Source: a virus
Taxonomy: Duplodnaviria > Heunggongvirae > Uroviricota > Caudoviricetes
IMG/VR virus record: IMGVR_UViG_2563366875_000005
Length of the DNA: 35,327 bases
Reading direction: 5' to 3' (one strand)
Shown here one piece after another: positions 7,047 to 29,070 of the stretch (the first letter of the stretch is position 1; each line of letters starts with the position of its first letter). The notes beneath the pieces are model-generated. The model did not search any database. It was not told the DNA's origin and saw only the letters and a list, made by a program, of their open reading frames with translations. Position numbers and translations under genes: made by a program.

Positions 7047-8237
7047 TTAATTGCTGTTAACCGAGGTGACCAGATTTGCCAGGTATTTATCAGTAATACG
7101 CTGGCGCAGGGTCAGGTTTTCAAGAGGAGGCACCGGGGTATAGTCGTAGTCGATATACAGTTTTCCGGCCTTGAGGGTTTCCGCATCGTTGGATTCTTCG
7201 CTGAACCAGCAGGTCGCATCCACGATATAGCCGTTTGTTTTCAGCTCACGGAATTTGGCATTGATGCCGTCAACGATGTCGCGAATCAGCGTTGCGGTGA
7301 TGGGCTTGTCCACCGCCCACATGTGCGCCTCAGCCATCGTGTCGGCCAGCACCTGCGCGGTGCGGGTGTAGTTTTCAAAGAGGAACAGCGGGTCATCAGA
7401 GCAGGTACGGTTACCCCAGAAGCGAAAACCGTCGCGGCGAATCAGCGTTGTGACGCCTGACTCGTTAAGCAGGTCAGCATCGGTGCCGGACTCCTGCAAA
7501 TCCCAGAATACAGAGGCGCTGATGCCGGTAACACCGTTCACCCCGACATTGGACAGCGTTTTATGCCAGCCCTGCTCCTGGTCGATTTTAGCGCGCAGCC
7601 CCAGCGCACGGGCGGTGGCATACGCGGTGGCGGTGGTACTGGTGACCGTATCCCATGCGAGGAAATCCGGCCAGATGACCATCAGCTCACGCTGGCTGAA
7701 ATTCTGACGGTAGGCTTTCACCTCGGAAATGGTTTTACAGCCCCATGCGCTGATATACCCGAAAGCGCGCAACTTCTGACAGACTGATGCCAGTGCAACA
7801 GCCACCTCTTTGGTGTCCAGTCCCGGCACGCCGAGAATACGCGGTTTAACACCGGTTACCGACTCCGCCGCCAGCAGGGCTTTCAGTCCGGTGTACTGAC
7901 CGTTTTCGTCGGTGGTGCCGATGATATTGGAAACGGTCTGCGCGAGTTTCGTTTCCTCGTCGTCGCCGGTGCCGTCTTCCACACGCACGACAACGGTGAC
8001 CGGTTTTGACTGGTCGGCGATGGCCTGCAACGATGCCGCCAGCGTGCCTTTTTTACCGGCCTTTGCAATTGCGCTCTGCACATTGGTAATCAGCACCGGT
8101 TTATTGAGGGGGAAGGTTTCCGCATCCGCATCGCTGGCCGTGCAGACCATGCCGACAATGGCAGTGGATACGGTGGAAATGACGCGGGTGCCGTCGTTAA
8201 TCTCCAGCACCTGCACGCCGTGATGATAGTCACTCAT
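7047..8237 (-). CDS. FI: Contractile tail sheath protein (gpFI)
   Basis: 396 aa, MSDYHHGVQVLEINDGTRVIS..., the length and N-terminus of P2 FI from memory. Confidence 0.9.
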   Translation of the reverse strand: MSDYHHGVQVLEINDGTRVISTVSTAIVGMVCTASDADAETFPLNKPVLITNVQSAIAKAGKKGTLAASLQAIADQSKPVTVVVRVEDGTGDDEETKLAQTVSNIIGTTDENGQYTGLKALLAAESVTGVKPRILGVPGLDTKEVAVALASVCQKLRAFGYISAWGCKTISEVKAYRQNFSQRELMVIWPDFLAWDTVTSTTATAYATARALGLRAKIDQEQGWHKTLSNVGVNGVTGISASVFWDLQESGTDADLLNESGVTTLIRRDGFRFWGNRTCSDDPLFLFENYTRTAQVLADTMAEAHMWAVDKPITATLIRDIVDGINAKFRELKTNGYIVDATCWFSEESNDAETLKAGKLYIDYDYTPVPPLENLTLRQRITDKYLANLVTSVNSN

Positions 8238-8330
8238 CCGTTTAACTCCGTGGTTAATGGGTGCAACTATTTTCTGTTGTGCAGAGCATGAGACGCTATT
8301 TGACCTGGCTGGTCAGTGGATGAAACAACA

Positions 8331-8360
8331 GATAAAGAAAAGGCGGGCAATCAGCCCGCC
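8331..8360 (-). terminator. Terminator-like hairpin at the backbone/cargo boundary
   Basis: ggcgggc-aatca-gcccgcc (8342-8360) preceded on the plus strand by aaagaaaa, giving a T-rich tract after the hairpin on the minus strand. Confidence 0.45.
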
Positions 8361-8595
8361 TGTCCTGACTTGCATTCACTCATTTTCCAACTGACGGTTT
8401 ACATAGCCCAAACGTTATCAAATCTGACAGCCTGCTTTGAGCGAACAGCAGAATTTCACAACTGTCATCGCCATTGAGGATGCTCAGCTAACCTTTTACA
8501 TGTTAATCGACAGGGAGCACCTCAGCACCACATGCCACTTAACAGGTTTACTCATTGATTTTTATATGAAAAAACCTTGCTTTCAATAGCACGCC

Positions 8596-8623
8596 TTGAT
8601 TTCTATCGCTGTAATGTTAGAAT
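8596..8623 (+). promoter_or_regulatory. Putative sigma70 promoter for the cargo operon
   Basis: TTGATT (8596-8601), 16-bp spacer, TAGAAT (8618-8623), about 28 bp upstream of the ATG at 8651. By-eye match only. Confidence 0.3.
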
Positions 8624-8650
8624 GTAAAAAAACTCATTTATACAGCATTT

Positions 8651-9031
8651 ATGGATAATATATCTCTTGATTACTTCCCTGTTATAATATTGGTTTTAGC
8701 TTTTTTTATGAAAGTTTCTATAGGTAGAGGTTTTGCCTTAAGTAATTATGGAGTTGGTTTATTAGAACTACCTGTTGACCTATTTTTTGTTTCAATTTCA
8801 ATATTTGCCACAACTATTCTTACTCATTCCGATAATATCCAGCAAAAAATTCAAACCCTAATTATATATTTAATATTTACTGTAGTGTCAGCAATTCTTT
8901 GGCGTTTCAATGAGACCCTATTCTTATCACAAACAAAGAAAAGATGGTGGTGCGCTCTTTTGATCCCTGCAAACATAATAATTGCATTTTATTTCTTTAT
9001 GATCACAATTGATTTGGTGAAGCAACAATGA
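8651..9031 (+). CDS. Small multi-pass membrane protein (cargo gene 1)
   Basis: 126 aa with about four hydrophobic helices (YFPVIILVLAFFM, LPVDLFFVSISIFATTIL, IQTLIIYLIFTVVSAILW, WWCALLIPANIIIAFYFFMITIDLV); very AT-rich; stop overlaps the next start (ATGA at 9028-9031); no obvious Shine-Dalgarno. Confidence 0.7.
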   Translation: MDNISLDYFPVIILVLAFFMKVSIGRGFALSNYGVGLLELPVDLFFVSISIFATTILTHSDNIQQKIQTLIIYLIFTVVSAILWRFNETLFLSQTKKRWWCALLIPANIIIAFYFFMITIDLVKQQ

Positions 9032-9756
9032 ATATCATTCGAGAATTTACCTCTAATTTGAATGGCGAGTTTTTCGCAATTATGTTTGCTATATTTTCTT
9101 TATTGTGTGTAATAATATCTCTTTTATTACTCAAAAAAAGAGAGACCATTTACAATGAAAAACTAAATAGAATTGAACTTGATTTTATGCGTTCAAATTA
9201 TGAAAATAAGATTTATGAATTAAATGAAAAGTTAACTTTTGAAAAGAAAAGATGGTTAGATAATAATCATTTTTTCGCAAATATGCCTAATGACGATCGG
9301 AAGATAGGTGCAATCAATCAAGCGATCAATCCACATTTTTTTCTAGAGAACATGGGGTTAAACCCTGATGCATTGAACATTAAACCAAAGAGTGTATTTA
9401 TCCTCACTCCATTTAATGATAGGTATCTTAATGATTACAAAGCTATTGAACAGGCTTGTATCAACATTGGTATATCTGTTTCTCGTGGAGATGAAGAACG
9501 CATAAATGGTGATATCTTATCCTATATAGTTTCTCAAATTTGTTCATCTCAATTGATTATCGCTAATATTTCTGGTAGAAATCCTAATGTTTTCTATGAA
9601 CTAGGTATTGCCCAGGCATTAGGAAAGCCGGCCATAATAGTCAGTAAAGGTGCAAAGGATATACCTTTCGACTTAAAAAATAGACAGGTTTTCATTTACG
9701 AGAGTTTATCTGATTTAACATCAAAAATCCAGAAAGCCGTTGTGAGTCTTCTTTAA
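9028..9756 (+). CDS. Membrane-anchored protein with C-terminal NDT/TIR-like (SLOG-fold) domain (cargo gene 2)
   Basis: 242 aa; N-terminal TM helix (FFAIMFAIFSLLCVIISLLLL) followed by KKRE; charged helical linker; the C-terminal ~120 aa carry VFILTPFND and LIIANISGRNPNVFYELGIAQALGKPAIIV, resembling the catalytic-Glu motif of nucleoside 2-deoxyribosyltransferase-like / TIR-like domains. The candidate Glu is E191 (codon 9598-9600). Confidence 0.75.
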   Translation: MNIIREFTSNLNGEFFAIMFAIFSLLCVIISLLLLKKRETIYNEKLNRIELDFMRSNYENKIYELNEKLTFEKKRWLDNNHFFANMPNDDRKIGAINQAINPHFFLENMGLNPDALNIKPKSVFILTPFNDRYLNDYKAIEQACINIGISVSRGDEERINGDILSYIVSQICSSQLIIANISGRNPNVFYELGIAQALGKPAIIVSKGAKDIPFDLKNRQVFIYESLSDLTSKIQKAVVSLL

Positions 9757-9885
9757 TTCATAGTTCTGTATTTCCCCTCAGGGCGGCAATGTCGTCCTGA
9801 GTAGTCCAGCGAAAGAATTGTCAGCATTGTCTCATATTAGTCATATACCATTATTACTGCTATTTAGTTTCTGAACCACTTATAA

Positions 9886-9903
9886 CTAGAAATATATTTC
9901 TAG
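9886..9903. repeat. 18-bp perfect palindrome ctagaaatatatttctag
   Basis: Read directly; it is its own reverse complement. Lies inside the 724-bp ORF-free gap between cargo genes. Confidence 0.85.
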
Positions 9904-10231
9904 CATCCCATTACCCATCGCATACCATTATTAAAATTCTATAAGTCCTTTATCCGAAGGGCGGCTTTATATATACAGACGCTTTGCATGGATACAGACT
10001 CGCGAAGAATTCCTTAGTTATATGTCCGTTGCAGTTCAAGTATAATCGTGAACCACCGTCTACGTAGATAGCCATAATCTCCCCTTCAAAAGATACCAGC
10101 AACGAGTTAGTCGAAAAAGATATCTCAAATCGGCGGATAAGGGGCTCTCACCAGACTGAATGAGCCTCCTAAAAAACCGGGGATGATAGTAACTATTATG
10201 TAGGCTTATCCGTAGCGATTAATTTGCTACT

Positions 10232-10259
10232 AATGCCCGCTGCTGGCACAGAGCAGACC
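10232..10259. repeat. GC-rich hairpin element, copy 1
   Basis: aatgcccgctgctggcacagagcagacc shares the core ctggcacagagc with copy 3. Confidence 0.6.
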
Positions 10260-10273
10260 ATCGGACTGAACTG

Positions 10274-10304
10274 AATGTCCGCTCTGAGCGAGGAGCGGAA
10301 GTCC
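10274..10304. repeat. GC-rich hairpin element, copy 2
   Basis: aatgtccgctctgagcgaggagcggaagtcc; 7-bp stem tccgctc/gagcgga; shares aatgtccgct with copy 3. Confidence 0.6.
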
Positions 10305-10417
10305 ATAATCATTCCCACCTTTGGCAAGAGCAATACTAATTTCTGATGGGATAGGATAATTAATAGACAACTGGCTAGTCGGAAATGCAGAGTTTTAACT
10401 TATATCGCATGTATACA

Positions 10418-10445
10418 TTGACCATTTTTAAATCGATAGTAACAT
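10418..10445 (+). promoter_or_regulatory. Putative sigma70 promoter for cargo gene 3
   Basis: TTGACC (10418-10423), 16-bp spacer, TAACAT (10440-10445); AGGAA RBS at 10471-10475 before the ATG at 10481. Confidence 0.35.
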
Positions 10446-10480
10446 CTTTCAAGACAATTGAGTATATATAAGGAATAAGA

Positions 10481-11239
10481 ATGAGCTTGCACCCTGAAAT
10501 ACTATTTCATTTTACAGATAAAGACGGGTTGTTAAATATACTTGAACACACATTTAAAATATCATACGCGAGAGAAAGGATACAAGGTAAGAATGAAATA
10601 AGAGAATTTGGTATTCCTATGGTTTCTTTTTGTGATATCAAACTTTCCGATCTAAAGGATCATATTGATAAGTATAGGGATTATGGCATTGGGTTAAATA
10701 AAGCATGGGCAAATTCAAAAGGACTCAATCCAGTTTGGTATGTAAGTAAAAATAGCGAATTCCCCGATGCATTTACCTCTGCATTAAACTCTTTATATCG
10801 AAAAATGGATTCTATATTGGACAATAAAGAGTATAAAGAATTTAATGAAACTTACATGAAATTCATGGATATATATAGATATCTTAAAAATTACGAGGGG
10901 GAACTAAAAAGATCCAAAGAAGTAATTAAAAACTATAGATTTGCGGATGAAAAAGAATGGAGATTCGTTCCAAGTATCAGCGAAGAAGATATATTACCAT
11001 TCGTACCTATTACTAAAATAAAAACAAAAAACCAGAAAGCGGAATATAATAATCAGATCAGTCATCTTCGCTTGAGCTTTGAGCCAAAAGATATAAAGTA
11101 TATCATTGTCAAAGATGAACATGATATTATTGATATTGTTAATCATCTTAAAATGGTTAAAAGTAGATTCTCTTCTCTTGATATAACACAACTACAAACG
11201 CGCATATTGACTACTGAGCAAATAAAAACTGACATGTGA
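10481..11239 (+). CDS. Hypothetical soluble cargo protein (cargo gene 3), possible Abi-like single-gene defence or exclusion protein
   Basis: 252 aa, no TM segments, Lys/Glu/Tyr/Asn-rich, very AT-rich with its own promoter and RBS; N-terminus MSLHPEILFHFTDKDGLLNILEH. I could not place it in a family from sequence alone. Confidence 0.75.
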   Translation: MSLHPEILFHFTDKDGLLNILEHTFKISYARERIQGKNEIREFGIPMVSFCDIKLSDLKDHIDKYRDYGIGLNKAWANSKGLNPVWYVSKNSEFPDAFTSALNSLYRKMDSILDNKEYKEFNETYMKFMDIYRYLKNYEGELKRSKEVIKNYRFADEKEWRFVPSISEEDILPFVPITKIKTKNQKAEYNNQISHLRLSFEPKDIKYIIVKDEHDIIDIVNHLKMVKSRFSSLDITQLQTRILTTEQIKTDM

Positions 11240-11285
11240 TGATATTATTAACTATTCAAAGGTTAATAATACAACCAGCGGTATC

Positions 11286-11316
11286 AATGTCCGCTTCTGG
11301 CACAGAGCGGACTGTC
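11286..11316. repeat. GC-rich hairpin element, copy 3
   Basis: aatgtccgcttctggcacagagcggactgtc; 7-bp stem gtccgct/agcggac with a 10-nt loop; 47 bp after the gene 3 stop and 58 bp before the G stop on the other strand. Confidence 0.6.
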
Positions 11317-11373
11317 AGATTAGGCTTTACTCTGTGCCATAGATATGTAAGCTCACACCAGAGATCATACAAC

Positions 11374-11901
11374 TTATTGCGGCATTTCCGGCCATTCGGG
11401 ATTTGCAGGATCCACACGACTGACCAGAACGCTGTAGCGTTCCCATGCTTCCAGTCGGCTGCGTTCCTCATCCGTCGCCATATTCAGCCTGACAGCGCGT
11501 TCCAGCGGCAAAATCACGGATTCAGCTTCGGAAAGTAAAGCTGCCTTTTGTGATTCTGCCAGTTGCTGCTGTTCATCTGCCGTATAAATCCGCTTAATCA
11601 CGGCACCATCCTTAAACATCCATTTACCTGAGTCATCAGCACGTCGGTTGGCGGTAATATCAGGAACCTCGACAACGCTAAAACCTTCAGGGTTAAGCGT
11701 TGAAACATCTCTGGTGATGCCGACAATTATATTATTCTCGTCGTAAACAATCTTTATCGTGTCTTCCTGAAAATTACTTACTTCCTCATACCAGTTTTTT
11801 CCGTCTTCAGACCATAACCAGATAACATCAAAATTTTTTGTCAGTTGATATTGGGCAACAGTTTTGGGATTACCCGCAGTAATATTTTTTAAATGCTGCA
11901 T
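11374..11901 (-). CDS. G: Tail fiber assembly chaperone (gpG)
   Basis: 175 aa, immediately downstream of the tail fiber gene; N-terminus [20 protein letters not shown]. Confidence 0.85.
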
Positions 11902-25852: not shown

Positions 25853-28800
25853 TTACAATGTTGGAGCATCAATCAGACACTTATCTCGCTCCACCTTTAG
25901 TGCCAAAAAACTCAGTCTGATTGATAAATATTTCATATCATCACCTCCTCCACTGATATCAAACTGTTGCTCATTCAACTCCTTAGCATATTCTAACTCT
26001 TTATCATAAGATGAGGTTACACGCCAAATTACAGAACCACGCTTAAATAAGTAGTATAAGCCATTAACATCCCGATACGCTTTCATAAGCTGCCATAACA
26101 CATCGGTACATCTGTTAAAAAGCTCATCTAATCGCTGCAAGAACAAATAATCATAAACGGCCTTTAATTCCCTCACCCCCTCCGCATCAATTTTTTCAAA
26201 CTCTCCGCAACGTACCAACTCTTCATACTTAACAAGTAACGCCCTGGCCTTAGTATACACTCCCCCTTCATTTTTTATGGCATTATCAATGTATTTGAAA
26301 GATGAACCAGAAAACAAATAATGAAGTTTAATGCTAATATTATTAGCCAGCGTGTTATACCCAGCAGCTCGGGACTTTTTCTCGAGAGAAATAAGCTTAT
26401 TAACCCTTTTACCATGAGACAATTCGTCAGCCAAATGAACTTCAGCATTGATATAATAACTAGAAGACTTTGGAGCTATCTTTTTTAATTTTATTGCGTA
26501 TTTTCGTGCTTTTTCATCATTATATTCAGAGCATGCCATCATAATATTATCAAGCATTTTAAAATAATATTCCTTTTGACAAAACTCTTTTGCCTCGAAC
26601 TCATCACTTAAAGGCTCAATAAATTCAACACTTTGTTCAACCTCATCAATCATTCTTAAACTTGTAGCCAAAAAATACGCAGCCCTAAATTTATCAAGAA
26701 TATCCAAATGAGAAATATTAGAATAAAGCATCCGAGAAAATGCGACGAGTTCTTTATAGTAACATGCACTCTTTAAAAAGATGCAATATCCTATAGAAAC
26801 ATGTATTAATGATTTAACTTCTCGATCATAATGATTAATATCTATTAATGAAAAGTATGAACTAATAGCTGAATGGACATTTCCAGGATAAAACTCCGGG
26901 CTTTCAAGCATCATCTTCACTGTAGGAGAGACTCTCACTTTCCCTGACATCCAATCGCTACCGATACAAAGTCCTAGGGATTTTTTTACAAGTTCATACC
27001 GTTGGTTAGGATCCATACCCTGCTTTACAAAATCACTAACAACTGGTGATATCCTTAATATTTTATAATTATCCTTTGTAATTGTATAAATCAGACCATA
27101 TCTTTCTAGTTTTGCGAAATCATCAAAATGAAAATCATACGATGAATAATAAGAGCGAATATTTGTCAATTTCTCCCCATATTCAAGCATAGAGAAAATG
27201 CATAGTAATGAATATAGTTTTCTATTATCACTTCTAATCTCGTTTATTTGCTTGGATATGTAGTGTGGAATGTCCGTATTTGTTCCCTCTGCCGAAACAA
27301 CAATATTTCCTGCATCAAGGACTTCATCAAATGACATTAACTCATAATACTCTTTAACCTTATCTAATTTTAAAGGTATTCCATTTGTTATTTCATACAA
27401 CCTATCAAGTTTCTCTCTTTTTATTTCAGTAATATCAGTGCCAACTTTAATATACTCCTTTATATCATCTAAAGATAAAGGCTGTAATTCCACTATACCA
27501 GAGCATATCCCGTTACATGTCGCTGATACAAAAATAACTTTCACACCAGAACTAAGATCTGATGATAATTTCGCAATCTCAGAAAAGAAAGCTTTAGTTG
27601 ATGGAGGAAGTCTGGCTATGTTATCAAGAATTAAAATCCGCTTTCCTAATCCATTATTAGATATGAAGGTTGCAATATCGATACCGATATCCTGTTTTAT
27701 TTTAACTTCAATATCATGAGATTCAGTCAATCCATTGACATCACTATAATAACATGTAAAATCATAAAATTCATCATGAATAAAAGAATATAAAAAACCT
27801 GCTTTTCCGTATCCCCAACCAGAAACAAGCTCAAAATGATTGTTATTATTTAAATAATCAGTGGCTTTTTTTTGCTCTACTAATCTAATTATATCATGCG
27901 CAGGCTCAACTGAAAGGTTATAGGGTCTCAGCGAAATAACTATGCTTTCTGTTATCGGCTGTAATCCAGTTTTTTTTACAACAAACTTACTTAATTGTTT
28001 TTTTTTACTAATCTCAGCCAAAGCATCTTCAAAGTATGTATTACAGTCAACCCCAACATATCCTTGAAAACGAGCATTAACAAGCGCTGGTTGAATAATT
28101 TCAATCAATCGTGAATGTTCTTTACTCACATCATCAATTGAGTTTTTATAAAAACCCCATCTAACATTATAACTTGGCTGAAACTCATGGACGATGTTTC
28201 TTAACGCCTGTAGAAAAACATCATCCCAACCTGCATATCCAATAACATATAATTTACTTGTATCCAATATATTTTTTATTGACAACTCAATTTTTTTCCT
28301 CAATGAAGAAAGCTGAGTTTGAGTATGCATAGTATCTCCATCCCAAACTCCATGTAAATGCACTACGGGAATGGATTCGCCTGAATAGCTGGTAACGCTA
28401 CCAATTGGTTGATCTACAATAAGATTATGTACATTACAATTTCTATTTACTCTAAACAATGCCTCTTCAATCAATGGATCAAAATTTGTTGTAAGTATGC
28501 ATTTTACTTTAATGCTAGTTTCTGAAATAAGCCTTGAAAAATCATCAAGTGATTTAGTAATTAACCATTTGTCGCCGCTCCTTGCATTATTCATTGCAAG
28601 AGCCATTATTTCTTTAACTTCATCTTGATCACCTACCTTCAAAAGGTATTCGAAACTTTTTTGATATTTATCAGTTTCACTTAAACCGATTATGTTACTT
28701 TCAAAGCCATCATAAATATCTAAATCAATCATATATTGCCGCAGAATATCATTCATCCCTGAAACGCCCGGTACCCCATTCCCCTCCGGCGAGCAACTCA

Positions 28801-28888
28801 CGGCTGACCCCAGAAGAAAACTAACGTCTTTACCTTTCCGAATATCCAATACCAAAGACTTTACAAATTCAGTATAAGAATTAAACAT
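25853..28888 (-). CDS. Large SIR2-domain defence protein (DSR2-like defence-associated sirtuin)
   Basis: About 1011 aa from the ATG at 28888 (AGGGA RBS); N-terminal SIR2 motifs FLLGSAVS, ILTTNFD and VVHLHG, then about 700 aa of mostly helical sequence; very AT-rich. The track ORF starts at 28981, but the 31-residue extension looks non-native. Confidence 0.8.
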   Translation of the reverse strand: MFNSYTEFVKSLVLDIRKGKDVSFLLGSAVSCSPEGNGVPGVSGMNDILRQYMIDLDIYDGFESNIIGLSETDKYQKSFEYLLKVGDQDEVKEIMALAMNNARSGDKWLITKSLDDFSRLISETSIKVKCILTTNFDPLIEEALFRVNRNCNVHNLIVDQPIGSVTSYSGESIPVVHLHGVWDGDTMHTQTQLSSLRKKIELSIKNILDTSKLYVIGYAGWDDVFLQALRNIVHEFQPSYNVRWGFYKNSIDDVSKEHSRLIEIIQPALVNARFQGYVGVDCNTYFEDALAEISKKKQLSKFVVKKTGLQPITESIVISLRPYNLSVEPAHDIIRLVEQKKATDYLNNNNHFELVSGWGYGKAGFLYSFIHDEFYDFTCYYSDVNGLTESHDIEVKIKQDIGIDIATFISNNGLGKRILILDNIARLPPSTKAFFSEIAKLSSDLSSGVKVIFVSATCNGICSGIVELQPLSLDDIKEYIKVGTDITEIKREKLDRLYEITNGIPLKLDKVKEYYELMSFDEVLDAGNIVVSAEGTNTDIPHYISKQINEIRSDNRKLYSLLCIFSMLEYGEKLTNIRSYYSSYDFHFDDFAKLERYGLIYTITKDNYKILRISPVVSDFVKQGMDPNQRYELVKKSLGLCIGSDWMSGKVRVSPTVKMMLESPEFYPGNVHSAISSYFSLIDINHYDREVKSLIHVSIGYCIFLKSACYYKELVAFSRMLYSNISHLDILDKFRAAYFLATSLRMIDEVEQSVEFIEPLSDEFEAKEFCQKEYYFKMLDNIMMACSEYNDEKARKYAIKLKKIAPKSSSYYINAEVHLADELSHGKRVNKLISLEKKSRAAGYNTLANNISIKLHYLFSGSSFKYIDNAIKNEGGVYTKARALLVKYEELVRCGEFEKIDAEGVRELKAVYDYLFLQRLDELFNRCTDVLWQLMKAYRDVNGLYYLFKRGSVIWRVTSSYDKELEYAKELNEQQFDISGGGDDMKYLSIRLSFLALKVERDKCLIDAPTL

Positions 28889-29070
28889 TAAGCAATCCCT
28901 TTCGTTATATGACGAAACTACAAGCAGAGAATTTCTGATAATTTTTACATTATGAAACCAAAGCATCAACACATAATACAAAACAAAAGTAACTTATTGA
29001 TTTGTATATAATTTCCATTATAAGTCTACACGTAATGCTACAGGAGCATTTTGAAGACCACTCCCCGCTT

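Follow-up and report, generated by a model that had tools for sequence, protein, structure and literature searches.

The DNA analyzed here (IMG/VR record IMGVR_UViG_2563366875_000005) is a stretch of 35,327 nucleotides, referred to throughout as the window, and represents a P2-like prophage of E. coli. Its first 1400 bases are yegQ, at 100% identity to E. coli genomes, and an Rfam scan places CyaR after this gene. Between the tail sheath gene FI and the tail-fibre assembly gene G lies an AT-rich island, at the position that the Z/fun lysogenic-conversion genes occupy in P2. The island holds two overlapping ORFs and an AbiGi-family gene, with an ORF-free gap in front of the latter, and ORF and domain annotation finds no integrase in it. 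The P2-like phage STYP1, in which the FI–G spacer is an empty 128 bp, has neither this cargo nor the repeat units described below. The main features are as follows.

1-1400: yegQ
1445-1530: CyaR, after yegQ
7047-8237, minus strand: tail sheath gene FI
8238-11373: AT-rich island between FI and G
8651-9031: 126-aa ORF, overlapping the 242-aa ORF
9028-9756: 242-aa ORF with a weak match to a nucleoside-deoxyribosyltransferase/TIR-like domain
9757-10480: ORF-free gap between the 242-aa ORF and the AbiGi-family gene
9777-9801, plus strand: hairpin with an 11-bp stem, 21 nt past the stop of the 242-aa ORF (−18.0 kcal/mol, z = −4.6)
9804-10232: filler, 429 bp of lineage-specific, non-coding DNA
10303-10480, plus strand: putative AbiGi leader, with a promoter-like TTGACC-16-TAACAT at 10418-10445 and a Shine-Dalgarno AAGGA at 10470-10474
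10481-11239, plus strand: AbiGi-family gene, 252 aa (Pfam PF10899, E = 2.8e-31; PADLOC AbiGi, E = 1.4e-47)
11374-11901, minus strand: tail-fibre assembly gene G

Coding capacity and sequence features of the gap

A preliminary description of the window had singled out the gap as devoid of ORFs and as the site of an 18-bp palindrome, a TATAAT hexamer and a GC-richer segment with two hairpins. From the stop of the 242-aa ORF (9756) to the AbiGi start (10481) there is indeed no ORF of at least 60 aa; the longest inside the gap measure 50 aa (9950-10102, minus strand), 46 aa and 45 aa. The palindrome (ctagaaatatatttctag at 9886-9903) is perfect, as described, and is the sole perfect 18-bp palindrome in the window. 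Its presence is no more than mildly unusual, because first-order Markov simulations give a probability of 0.13 for the window, and 0.03 for the island, of at least one such palindrome. The TATAAT is present at 10041-10046, but it is not singled out by a promoter scan, and 13 promoter-like sites are found in the island as a whole versus 13.6 expected from shuffled sequence. In a copy of this region on a Morganella chromosome (locus L061, 92.6% identity), the palindrome reads ccagcaatatatttc-ag, with three changes of which one is a deletion, and the TATAAT has mutated to taaaat. The GC-richer segment is likewise real, with a GC content of 0.46 at 10000-10299 versus 0.26-0.34 in the flanking cassette genes, and its two hairpin elements, at 10233-10258 and 10277-10302, jointly form one long hairpin. 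The palindrome and the TATAAT, on which the preliminary description had laid most stress, are incidental, and the informative feature is the GC-rich hairpin pair.

The hairpin at 9777-9801, which lacks a U tract, is probably the 3′-end hairpin of the two-gene operon, whether as terminator or as stabiliser. It is the sole part of the gap still homologous in two related loci (L064 and L066, with 83% protein identity), where homology ends at 9803; in operon copies at 75% identity, homology has already ended at 9701. The filler that follows it, which contains both the 18-bp palindrome and the TATAAT, is absent from the more distant operon copies and is 85-93% identical to the Morganella copy, versus 95% for the ORFs. 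The suggestion that the gap might be a decayed cargo gene was not borne out: read in any frame, 9757-10232 has no relatives among 5.8 billion proteins, in Pfam or by plasmid tblastn. For the filler itself, a concatenated six-frame query against the same 5.8 billion proteins returned no relative at E ≤ 1, and there was no Pfam match at E ≤ 10, no plasmid tblastn match and no Rfam match; a 23-nt probe taken from its best-conserved stretch had no match in viral contigs. One candidate gene, a 41-codon minus-strand ORF with a good Shine-Dalgarno at 9954-10079, was rejected on the Morganella alignment, in which both differences in the first 12 codons are nonsynonymous and a 2-bp deletion shifts the frame near the end.

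Two types of palindromic unit bound the cassettes

Alignment resolves the long hairpin into a head-to-head pair of two 26-nt palindromic units. These share the arms GTCCGCT/AGCGGAC and have one of two conserved loop types. The consensus of unit A is GTCCGCT-NNGAGCGAGG-AGCGGAA, with a longer form GTCCGCT-NNGAGCGAGG-AGCGGAAGT; that of unit B is GTCCGCT-YTGTGCCAGR-AGCGGAC, with a longer form that ends in AGCGGACRT. Four units are present in the island, and an independent repeat finder places all four in a single family (D1, with inverted repeats I1 and I2).

8430-8455, plus strand: left-edge unit, degenerate type A (GCCTGCTTTGAGCGAACAGCAGAATT), preceded by aaatctgaca; family D1, inverted repeat I2
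8438-10241: cassette 1, comprising a leader, the 126-aa ORF, the 242-aa ORF and the first 485 bp of the gap
10233-10258, minus strand: type B unit (GTCTGCTCTGTGCCAGCAGCGGGCAT on the minus strand) at the right end of cassette 1 (nhmmer E = 1e-4)
10259-10276: 18-nt linker between B and A (catcggactgaactgaat)
10277-10302, plus strand: type A unit (GTCCGCTCTGAGCGAGGAGCGGAAGT) at the left end of cassette 2, whose cargo is the AbiGi-family gene (nhmmer E = 8e-8)
11287-11312, minus strand: right-edge unit, type B (GTCCGCTCTGTGCCAGAAGCGGACAT on the minus strand), followed by tgtcagattaggctttactctgtgc (nhmmer E = 3.5e-9)

Because the four units sit at both island edges and at the internal junction, the layout of the island is [A> cassette 1 <B][A> cassette 2 <B]. 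The unit at 10277-10302 is an exact match to the consensus, the sole one in the window, with none expected in shuffled sequence, and a scan with the unit profile finds no extra boundary unit inside the filler. The internal B-A composite spans 70 bp (10233-10302) and folds at −36.1 kcal/mol (z = −4.4) on the plus strand and at −34.7 kcal/mol on the minus strand. Its linker is semi-conserved across genera, with the consensus aAGCTAACTGAGCTGAAG in an alignment of 40 junction pairs from many Enterobacterales.

The DNA between the composite and the AbiGi start (10303-10480) appears to be the promoter and leader of that gene. In E. coli EC102, the sequence 5′ of a PARIS-like cassette (AAA + DUF4435) is about 70-72% identical to it, promoter hexamers included, and there too follows a matching junction pair.

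Conservation of the units is of sequence

The preliminary description had also raised the possibility of a structured non-coding RNA, and neither Rfam matches nor covariation speak for one. At the gathering threshold, Rfam returned nothing for the gap, with only microRNA noise at E < 10, and the units had no match in the window, in the gap or in 18 related loci. No covariation was detected in 322 distinct units or in 40 junction pairs, for which the RNAalifold covariation term is 0.03. The consensus pair is retained at 85% of stem positions, and variation on one side of a pair is independent of the other: among the 322 units, pair 4 is CG in 198, CA in 42, TG in 48 and TA in 8 (Fisher p = 0.69). 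Changes that allow G-U pairing on the unit strand number 68, versus 59 C-A changes, which allow it on the opposite strand only (p = 0.48, with symmetric selection). A one-strand G-U wobble bias, a candidate sign of folded RNA, was rejected as an artefact of a selection that counted G-U as paired. The unit loops are conserved as strongly as the arms. Since there is no covariation, what is conserved is the palindromic sequence as such, a pattern more in keeping with a DNA site, or with a repeat of recent spread, than with a structured RNA. A terminator scan of 8238-11373 did not report the units, which lack a U tract and continue with AGTCCAT or ATTGAT.

Cassette 1 recurs in unrelated mobile elements

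Two islands in lambdoid prophages (L050 and L053) encode a 242-aa protein identical to that of the window, and their DNA matches cassette 1 at 99.3% identity over 1804 bp, between unrelated flanks. In both, homology begins at 8438, inside the left A unit; its right end falls at 10241 in L050, inside the B unit, and at 10283 in L053. The Morganella copy, which adjoins icd, matches 8434-10258 at the 92.6% identity given above, again between unrelated flanks, and it too sits between A> and <B units. Because homology to all three loci ends in units, cassette 1 takes in the first 485 bp of the gap, and AbiGi makes up a cassette of its own; its module is absent where cassette 1 recurs in the lambdoid prophages and in Morganella. 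The remaining proposal of the preliminary description, a recombination region that separates two independently acquired modules, is supported by the occurrence of the upstream module alone in lambdoid prophages and on the Morganella chromosome.

The junctions themselves differ among these copies. At the right end of cassette 1 there is one unit in L050, two in the window and three in L053, in exact 42-bp steps. At the left end, the loop and 3′ arm of the unit move with the cassette, and the 5′ arm varies by context, a pattern that is repeated at the L001/L002 junction; at the Morganella junction the 3′ arm differs too.

Spread of the units and homology breakpoints

When the gap is searched by BLAST against 5,426 complete E. 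coli genomes, only about 10231-10312 has matches. Matching DNA is present in 357 genomes; it is never annotated, and its surroundings are unrelated. It precedes a dCTP-deaminase defence gene in some of them and, at a site that is not in a prophage, a PARIS-like AAA + DUF4435 pair; elsewhere it adjoins a retron Eco8 effector, conjugation genes or, in lambdoid prophages, the vicinity of Q, and a second P2-like phage also carries it. A 34-nt probe finds unit B in 2341 of the 5426 genomes (43%), in 1-6 places each with a median of 1, and never under an annotated feature; it is absent from the other 57%. With a 75-nt consensus, the B-A junction is found in 837 plasmids (Klebsiella 371, Enterobacter 156, Pantoea 112, Escherichia 62, and others), half of which are conjugative, and the pair again never lies under an annotated feature. 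An exact degenerate pattern for A or B matches at least 120 DNA stretches in a collection with one genome per species, among them stretches from many Enterobacterales genera. A literal literature search for the unit sequence and its spurious translations gave no relevant match.

Adjacent units are head-to-head in 84 of 119 cases, and each of the 58 distinct head-to-head pairs listed joins an A to a B; in several loci, B-A pairs form arrays of a single polarity. The genes beside units in other Enterobacterales are for the most part ordinary accessory genes, and a minority are defence genes. The notion that units specifically mark defence genes was rejected, as LysR regulators, dehydrogenases, transporters and acetyltransferases predominate there. 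A chrB-b Rfam match in one alphaproteobacterial locus is unrelated to the units.

We compared the positions of units with the ends of homology blocks (at least 400 bp at 88% identity or more) among all loci compared. Of 515 internal block ends, 113 lie within 20 bp of a unit, where random placement gives 10.0 (sd 2.9, maximum 18); this excess is about 11-fold over chance, and 59 of 257 ends remain when distinct contexts are counted. The loci in this comparison were largely collected because they bear units, so that the sample is biased and the size of the excess provisional. BLAST ends reveal no fixed crossover nucleotide within units; the near-invariant arms let alignments run through the unit, so the crossover point is not placeable. 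At the level of whole units, the alignments demonstrate that mobile elements with nothing else in common start and cease to be homologous at these sites.

Relation to known inverted repeats of the P2 Z/fun region

The sequence upstream of FI matches four P2-like ‘proviral Z-regions’ records (AJ512676, AJ512682, AJ512683 and AJ512685), in which the matching stretch is annotated as ‘right inverted repeat’ or ‘repeat_region’; these are the records of Nilsson, Karlsson & Haggard-Ljungquist 2004, Mol Biol Evol 21:1. Extraction of the repeats from AJ512676 and AJ512683 shows that the left repeat ends in unit B and the right repeat in unit A, and AJ512685 carries the same left and right repeat annotation. 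The window matches AJ512683 and AJ512685 under the ‘right inverted repeat’ at 90.7-93% identity (8238-8470); its unit at 8430-8455 corresponds to the inner end of the ‘right inverted repeat’ and that at 11287-11312 to the inner end of the ‘left inverted repeat’. P2 itself retains the A-side unit only.

The P2 Z/fun repeats and the window thus agree in locus, between G and FI, and in near-identical sequences at the island edges. They differ in content: AJ512676, AJ512683 and AJ512685 have one ORF between the two repeats, whereas the window has two cassettes in tandem and, because of this, an extra back-to-back B/A pair inside the island. The element at the island edge was therefore already known, and the finding here is the internal B/A pair. 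The title of the 2004 paper by Nilsson and co-authors implies a dedicated recombinase at the repeats.

Discussion

We propose, with a probability of roughly 0.75, that the gap is not a gene or an RNA locus; it is the seam between two separately acquired cargo cassettes at the Z/fun hotspot of a P2-like prophage, and the units would serve as portable recombination joints. The evidence for this seam is comparative genomics. Read from left to right, the seam would consist of the 3′ hairpin of the operon, about 430 bp of filler, the B-A element, and the promoter and leader of AbiGi. As joints, the units would allow cassettes to be swapped among P2-like phages, lambdoid phages, plasmids and islands. 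With 26-75 bp shared, exchange could proceed by short homology, through RecA or phage enzymes of the Red/RecET type, or by a dedicated recombinase.

The placement of many units counts against a joint as their primary role: the plasmid copies and several of the E. coli copies often lie between convergent genes or past a 3′ end, which also fits a primary role at 3′ ends or as an insulator. The composite palindrome might accordingly be mainly transcriptional, a bidirectional terminator, an insulator or a 3′-end stabiliser of the REP/BIME kind, with recombination a by-product of a dispersed repeat. We regard this as a serious possibility, though one at rather less than even odds. It would account for the strong hairpin on both strands and for the many loci just past a gene 3′ end or between convergent genes; in 13 of 27 loci from Alphaproteobacteria, a hairpin with the same arms follows a convergent gene, 0-36 nt from its stop codon, and the two inverted unit types with a conserved linker resemble the BIMEs of E. 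coli. It accords poorly with hairpins that have no U tract and go unflagged by the terminator scan, with the lack of covariation and of a wobble strand bias, and with loops as conserved as the stems, for which a simple terminator has no need. Such a terminator or insulator function, with which the frequent position after 3′ ends is compatible, partly overlaps with one in recombination, and the two may coexist. More specific, and in our judgment unlikely, is the idea that a dedicated system for site-specific recombination acts in trans on the units as its core sites; A and B would then be heterospecific and, inverted at the cassette ends, would permit exchange without excision. The arms ATGTCCGCT/AGCGGACAT around an asymmetric 10-bp centre (9-10-9) are laid out like the sites of tyrosine recombinases, but such a centre exceeds the usual overlap region of 6-8 bp. 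Arms and loops are conserved in sequence across many genera and the flanks are not; every cassette has one A and one B pointing inward, with arrays of one polarity; and the loop and 3′ arm travel with the cassette, with the 5′ arm dependent on context. In Morganella, however, the 3′ arm also differs, so that breakpoints are not demonstrably fixed, and the 42-bp steps in copy number look like homology-driven slippage. A passage of a review (PMC8987985), citing Nilsson 2004, states that the repeats ‘enable site-specific recombination’, a proposal for the island-edge repeats that it attributes to Nilsson et al. 2004. Against this, no recombinase is consistently linked to the units, and no integrase family is among the commonest Pfam matches of 134 neighbouring ORFs.

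Two further explanations address the gap more than the units. The filler could be the remnant of a decayed cargo gene or an eroded third cassette: it is somewhat GC-richer than the neighbouring genes, has minus-strand stop-free stretches of 65 and 52 codons, and diverges faster than the ORFs. With no protein, Pfam, plasmid tblastn or viral-contig match and no internal unit, we think this quite improbable. Least credible of all is a structured ncRNA encoded by the gap, or a role of the 18-bp palindrome as the operator of a protein that regulates the cargo genes. The window has no second palindrome of this kind and several segments of the gap fold better than shuffled controls, but there is no Rfam family at the gathering threshold and no covariation, the palindrome has three changes in Morganella, and the segment is missing from distant operon copies.

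The reading of the gap as a seam invites comparison with other repeat systems. REP and BIME elements are extragenic palindromes, often 3′ of genes, and are known hot spots of rearrangement. Like REP, BIME and REPIN sequences, the units are short GC-rich extragenic palindromes of two types, in inverted pairs with a conserved linker; unlike them, they are present in 1-6 copies per E. coli genome, not hundreds, occur in horizontally acquired DNA only, and have a different sequence that lacks the GTAG head. The Y1 transposase (RAYT) family is absent from the top Pfam families of the 134 ORFs beside units. The attC arrays of integrons resemble the island in their single-gene or small-operon cassettes, imperfect palindromes, single polarity and boundary inside the palindrome. 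The island differs in that no IntI, attI or Pc is nearby and no integrase is enriched near units; moreover, attC conserves structure, not sequence, whereas the units conserve sequence without covariation, and integron cassettes have one attC where the cassettes here have two inverted ends each. The Xer-dependent pdif modules of Acinetobacter plasmids are similar to the cassettes as accessory modules between short inverted site-like repeats in different replicons, and the same module can be present in several of these; by inspection against the dif consensus, however, the units bear no resemblance to the 28-bp site with its XerC and XerD arms, and no sign of Xer involvement emerged. In 2010, Arbiol, Comeau and Krisch reportedly described PeSL stem-loop cassettes that flank hypervariable genes of T4-type phages, for which shuffling by short homology was proposed. 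PeSLs are, like the units, short conserved stem-loops beside variable genes; they differ in having an early promoter inside, in belonging to lytic T4-type phages and in a sequence unrelated to the units.

The molecular mechanisms by which cargo and defence genes turn over at prophage hotspots have been described as unknown (Rousset et al., 2022; PMC9122126). The locus provides a worked example, in which two unrelated phage families share a 1.8-kb cassette at 99.3% identity, another genus has it at 92.6%, and the exchange points lie inside a 26-bp palindromic unit. Although widespread, unit B and the B-A pair are unannotated in the E. coli genome and plasmid records examined; a model of the units could delimit cargo cassettes automatically, and the units offer a defined substrate for tests of homology versus recombinase. 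A and B may even be heterospecific core sites of an unrecognised, trans-acting cassette-exchange system across Enterobacterales, integron-like and without a linked integrase, that would assemble accessory and defence cassettes and pass them among P2-like and lambdoid phages, conjugative plasmids and islands, which is a doubtful prospect; if it were true, the same-arm hairpins in soil Alphaproteobacteria would point to an ancient recognition module. The wider picture, which we consider moderately interesting, is of a boundary element of accessory cassettes that goes unannotated although it is common in the prophages, plasmids and islands of enterobacteria.

Insertion point and boundary units

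The insertion point of the island separates gene G from the apparent original terminator of G's operon, which we place as follows:

8341-8361, minus strand: canonical intrinsic terminator, an 8-bp GC-rich stem followed by TTTCTTT

This terminator lies directly upstream of the FI promoter region and is retained in STYP1, a P2-like phage with an empty site; it looks like the one that originally served G's operon.

At the right junction of cassette 1, the number of boundary units is unstable, because near-identical junctions carry one unit in L050 (6206-6233), three in L053 (6206-6317) and two in the window (10233-10302), and these counts differ by exact 42-bp steps. L050 and L053 are lambdoid prophage islands, and the three sequences are otherwise 99% identical at this junction. 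The loop region of the window's B unit (10233-10258, minus strand) reads GTGCCAGCAGC, where other copies read CTCCGTGCCAGGAGC. GTGCCAGCAGC equals an 11-nt stretch of the 530-loop of 16S rRNA, where the 515F primer sequence lies, a match that is most likely a coincidence.

Hairpins with the same arms as the units (ATGTCCGCT...AGCGGACAT) also occur in soil Alphaproteobacteria, in tandem arrays of two or three at L068, L096, L104, L129, L162 and about 20 further loci (Pseudolabrys, Xanthobacteraceae and Hyphomicrobiales MAGs). These arrays usually follow an ordinary, convergently oriented gene, 0-36 nt beyond its stop codon, and a search of Rfam returned no family matching them. Their loops are of three types: TTGTGCCAGA, which matches the enterobacterial B loop exactly, and TTGGGTCATT and TTACCCCCAAA, which by inspection contain the complementary runs TTTGGG and CCCAAA.

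Cargo genes

The coding features considered here are:

8651-9756, plus strand: overlapping ORFs of 126 aa (no family) and 242 aa (weak nucleoside 2-deoxyribosyltransferase/TIR-like match)
10481-11239, plus strand: solitary AbiGi-family gene, by family match
25853-28981, minus strand: 1042-aa ORF with a SIR2-type domain (PADLOC Aga_SIR2/pAgo-associated models, E = 1e-15)

Neither the ORF list nor domain searches revealed an AbiGii partner ORF in the AbiGi cassette. The exact AbiGi protein was found solely in the same two-cassette P2 context, and no copy of the cassette was present among 5,426 complete E. coli genomes. Its leader (10303-10448) is ~70-72% identical, promoter-like hexamers included, to positions 4067-4207 of L003 (E. 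coli EC102), which precede a PARIS-like AAA + DUF4435 pair. From this alignment, a promoter/leader module seems to be common to unrelated cargo genes.

The SIR2-type ORF, in the prophage's other variable region, is probably a second defence cargo; a search of the window found no boundary units around it.

The 126-aa/242-aa ORF pair is a mobile operon. Relatives of the 242-aa protein (979 at E <= 1e-5) are spread over many phyla, and in the lambdoid islands its gene is surrounded by defence genes. The operon is a candidate for an uncharacterised defence system.
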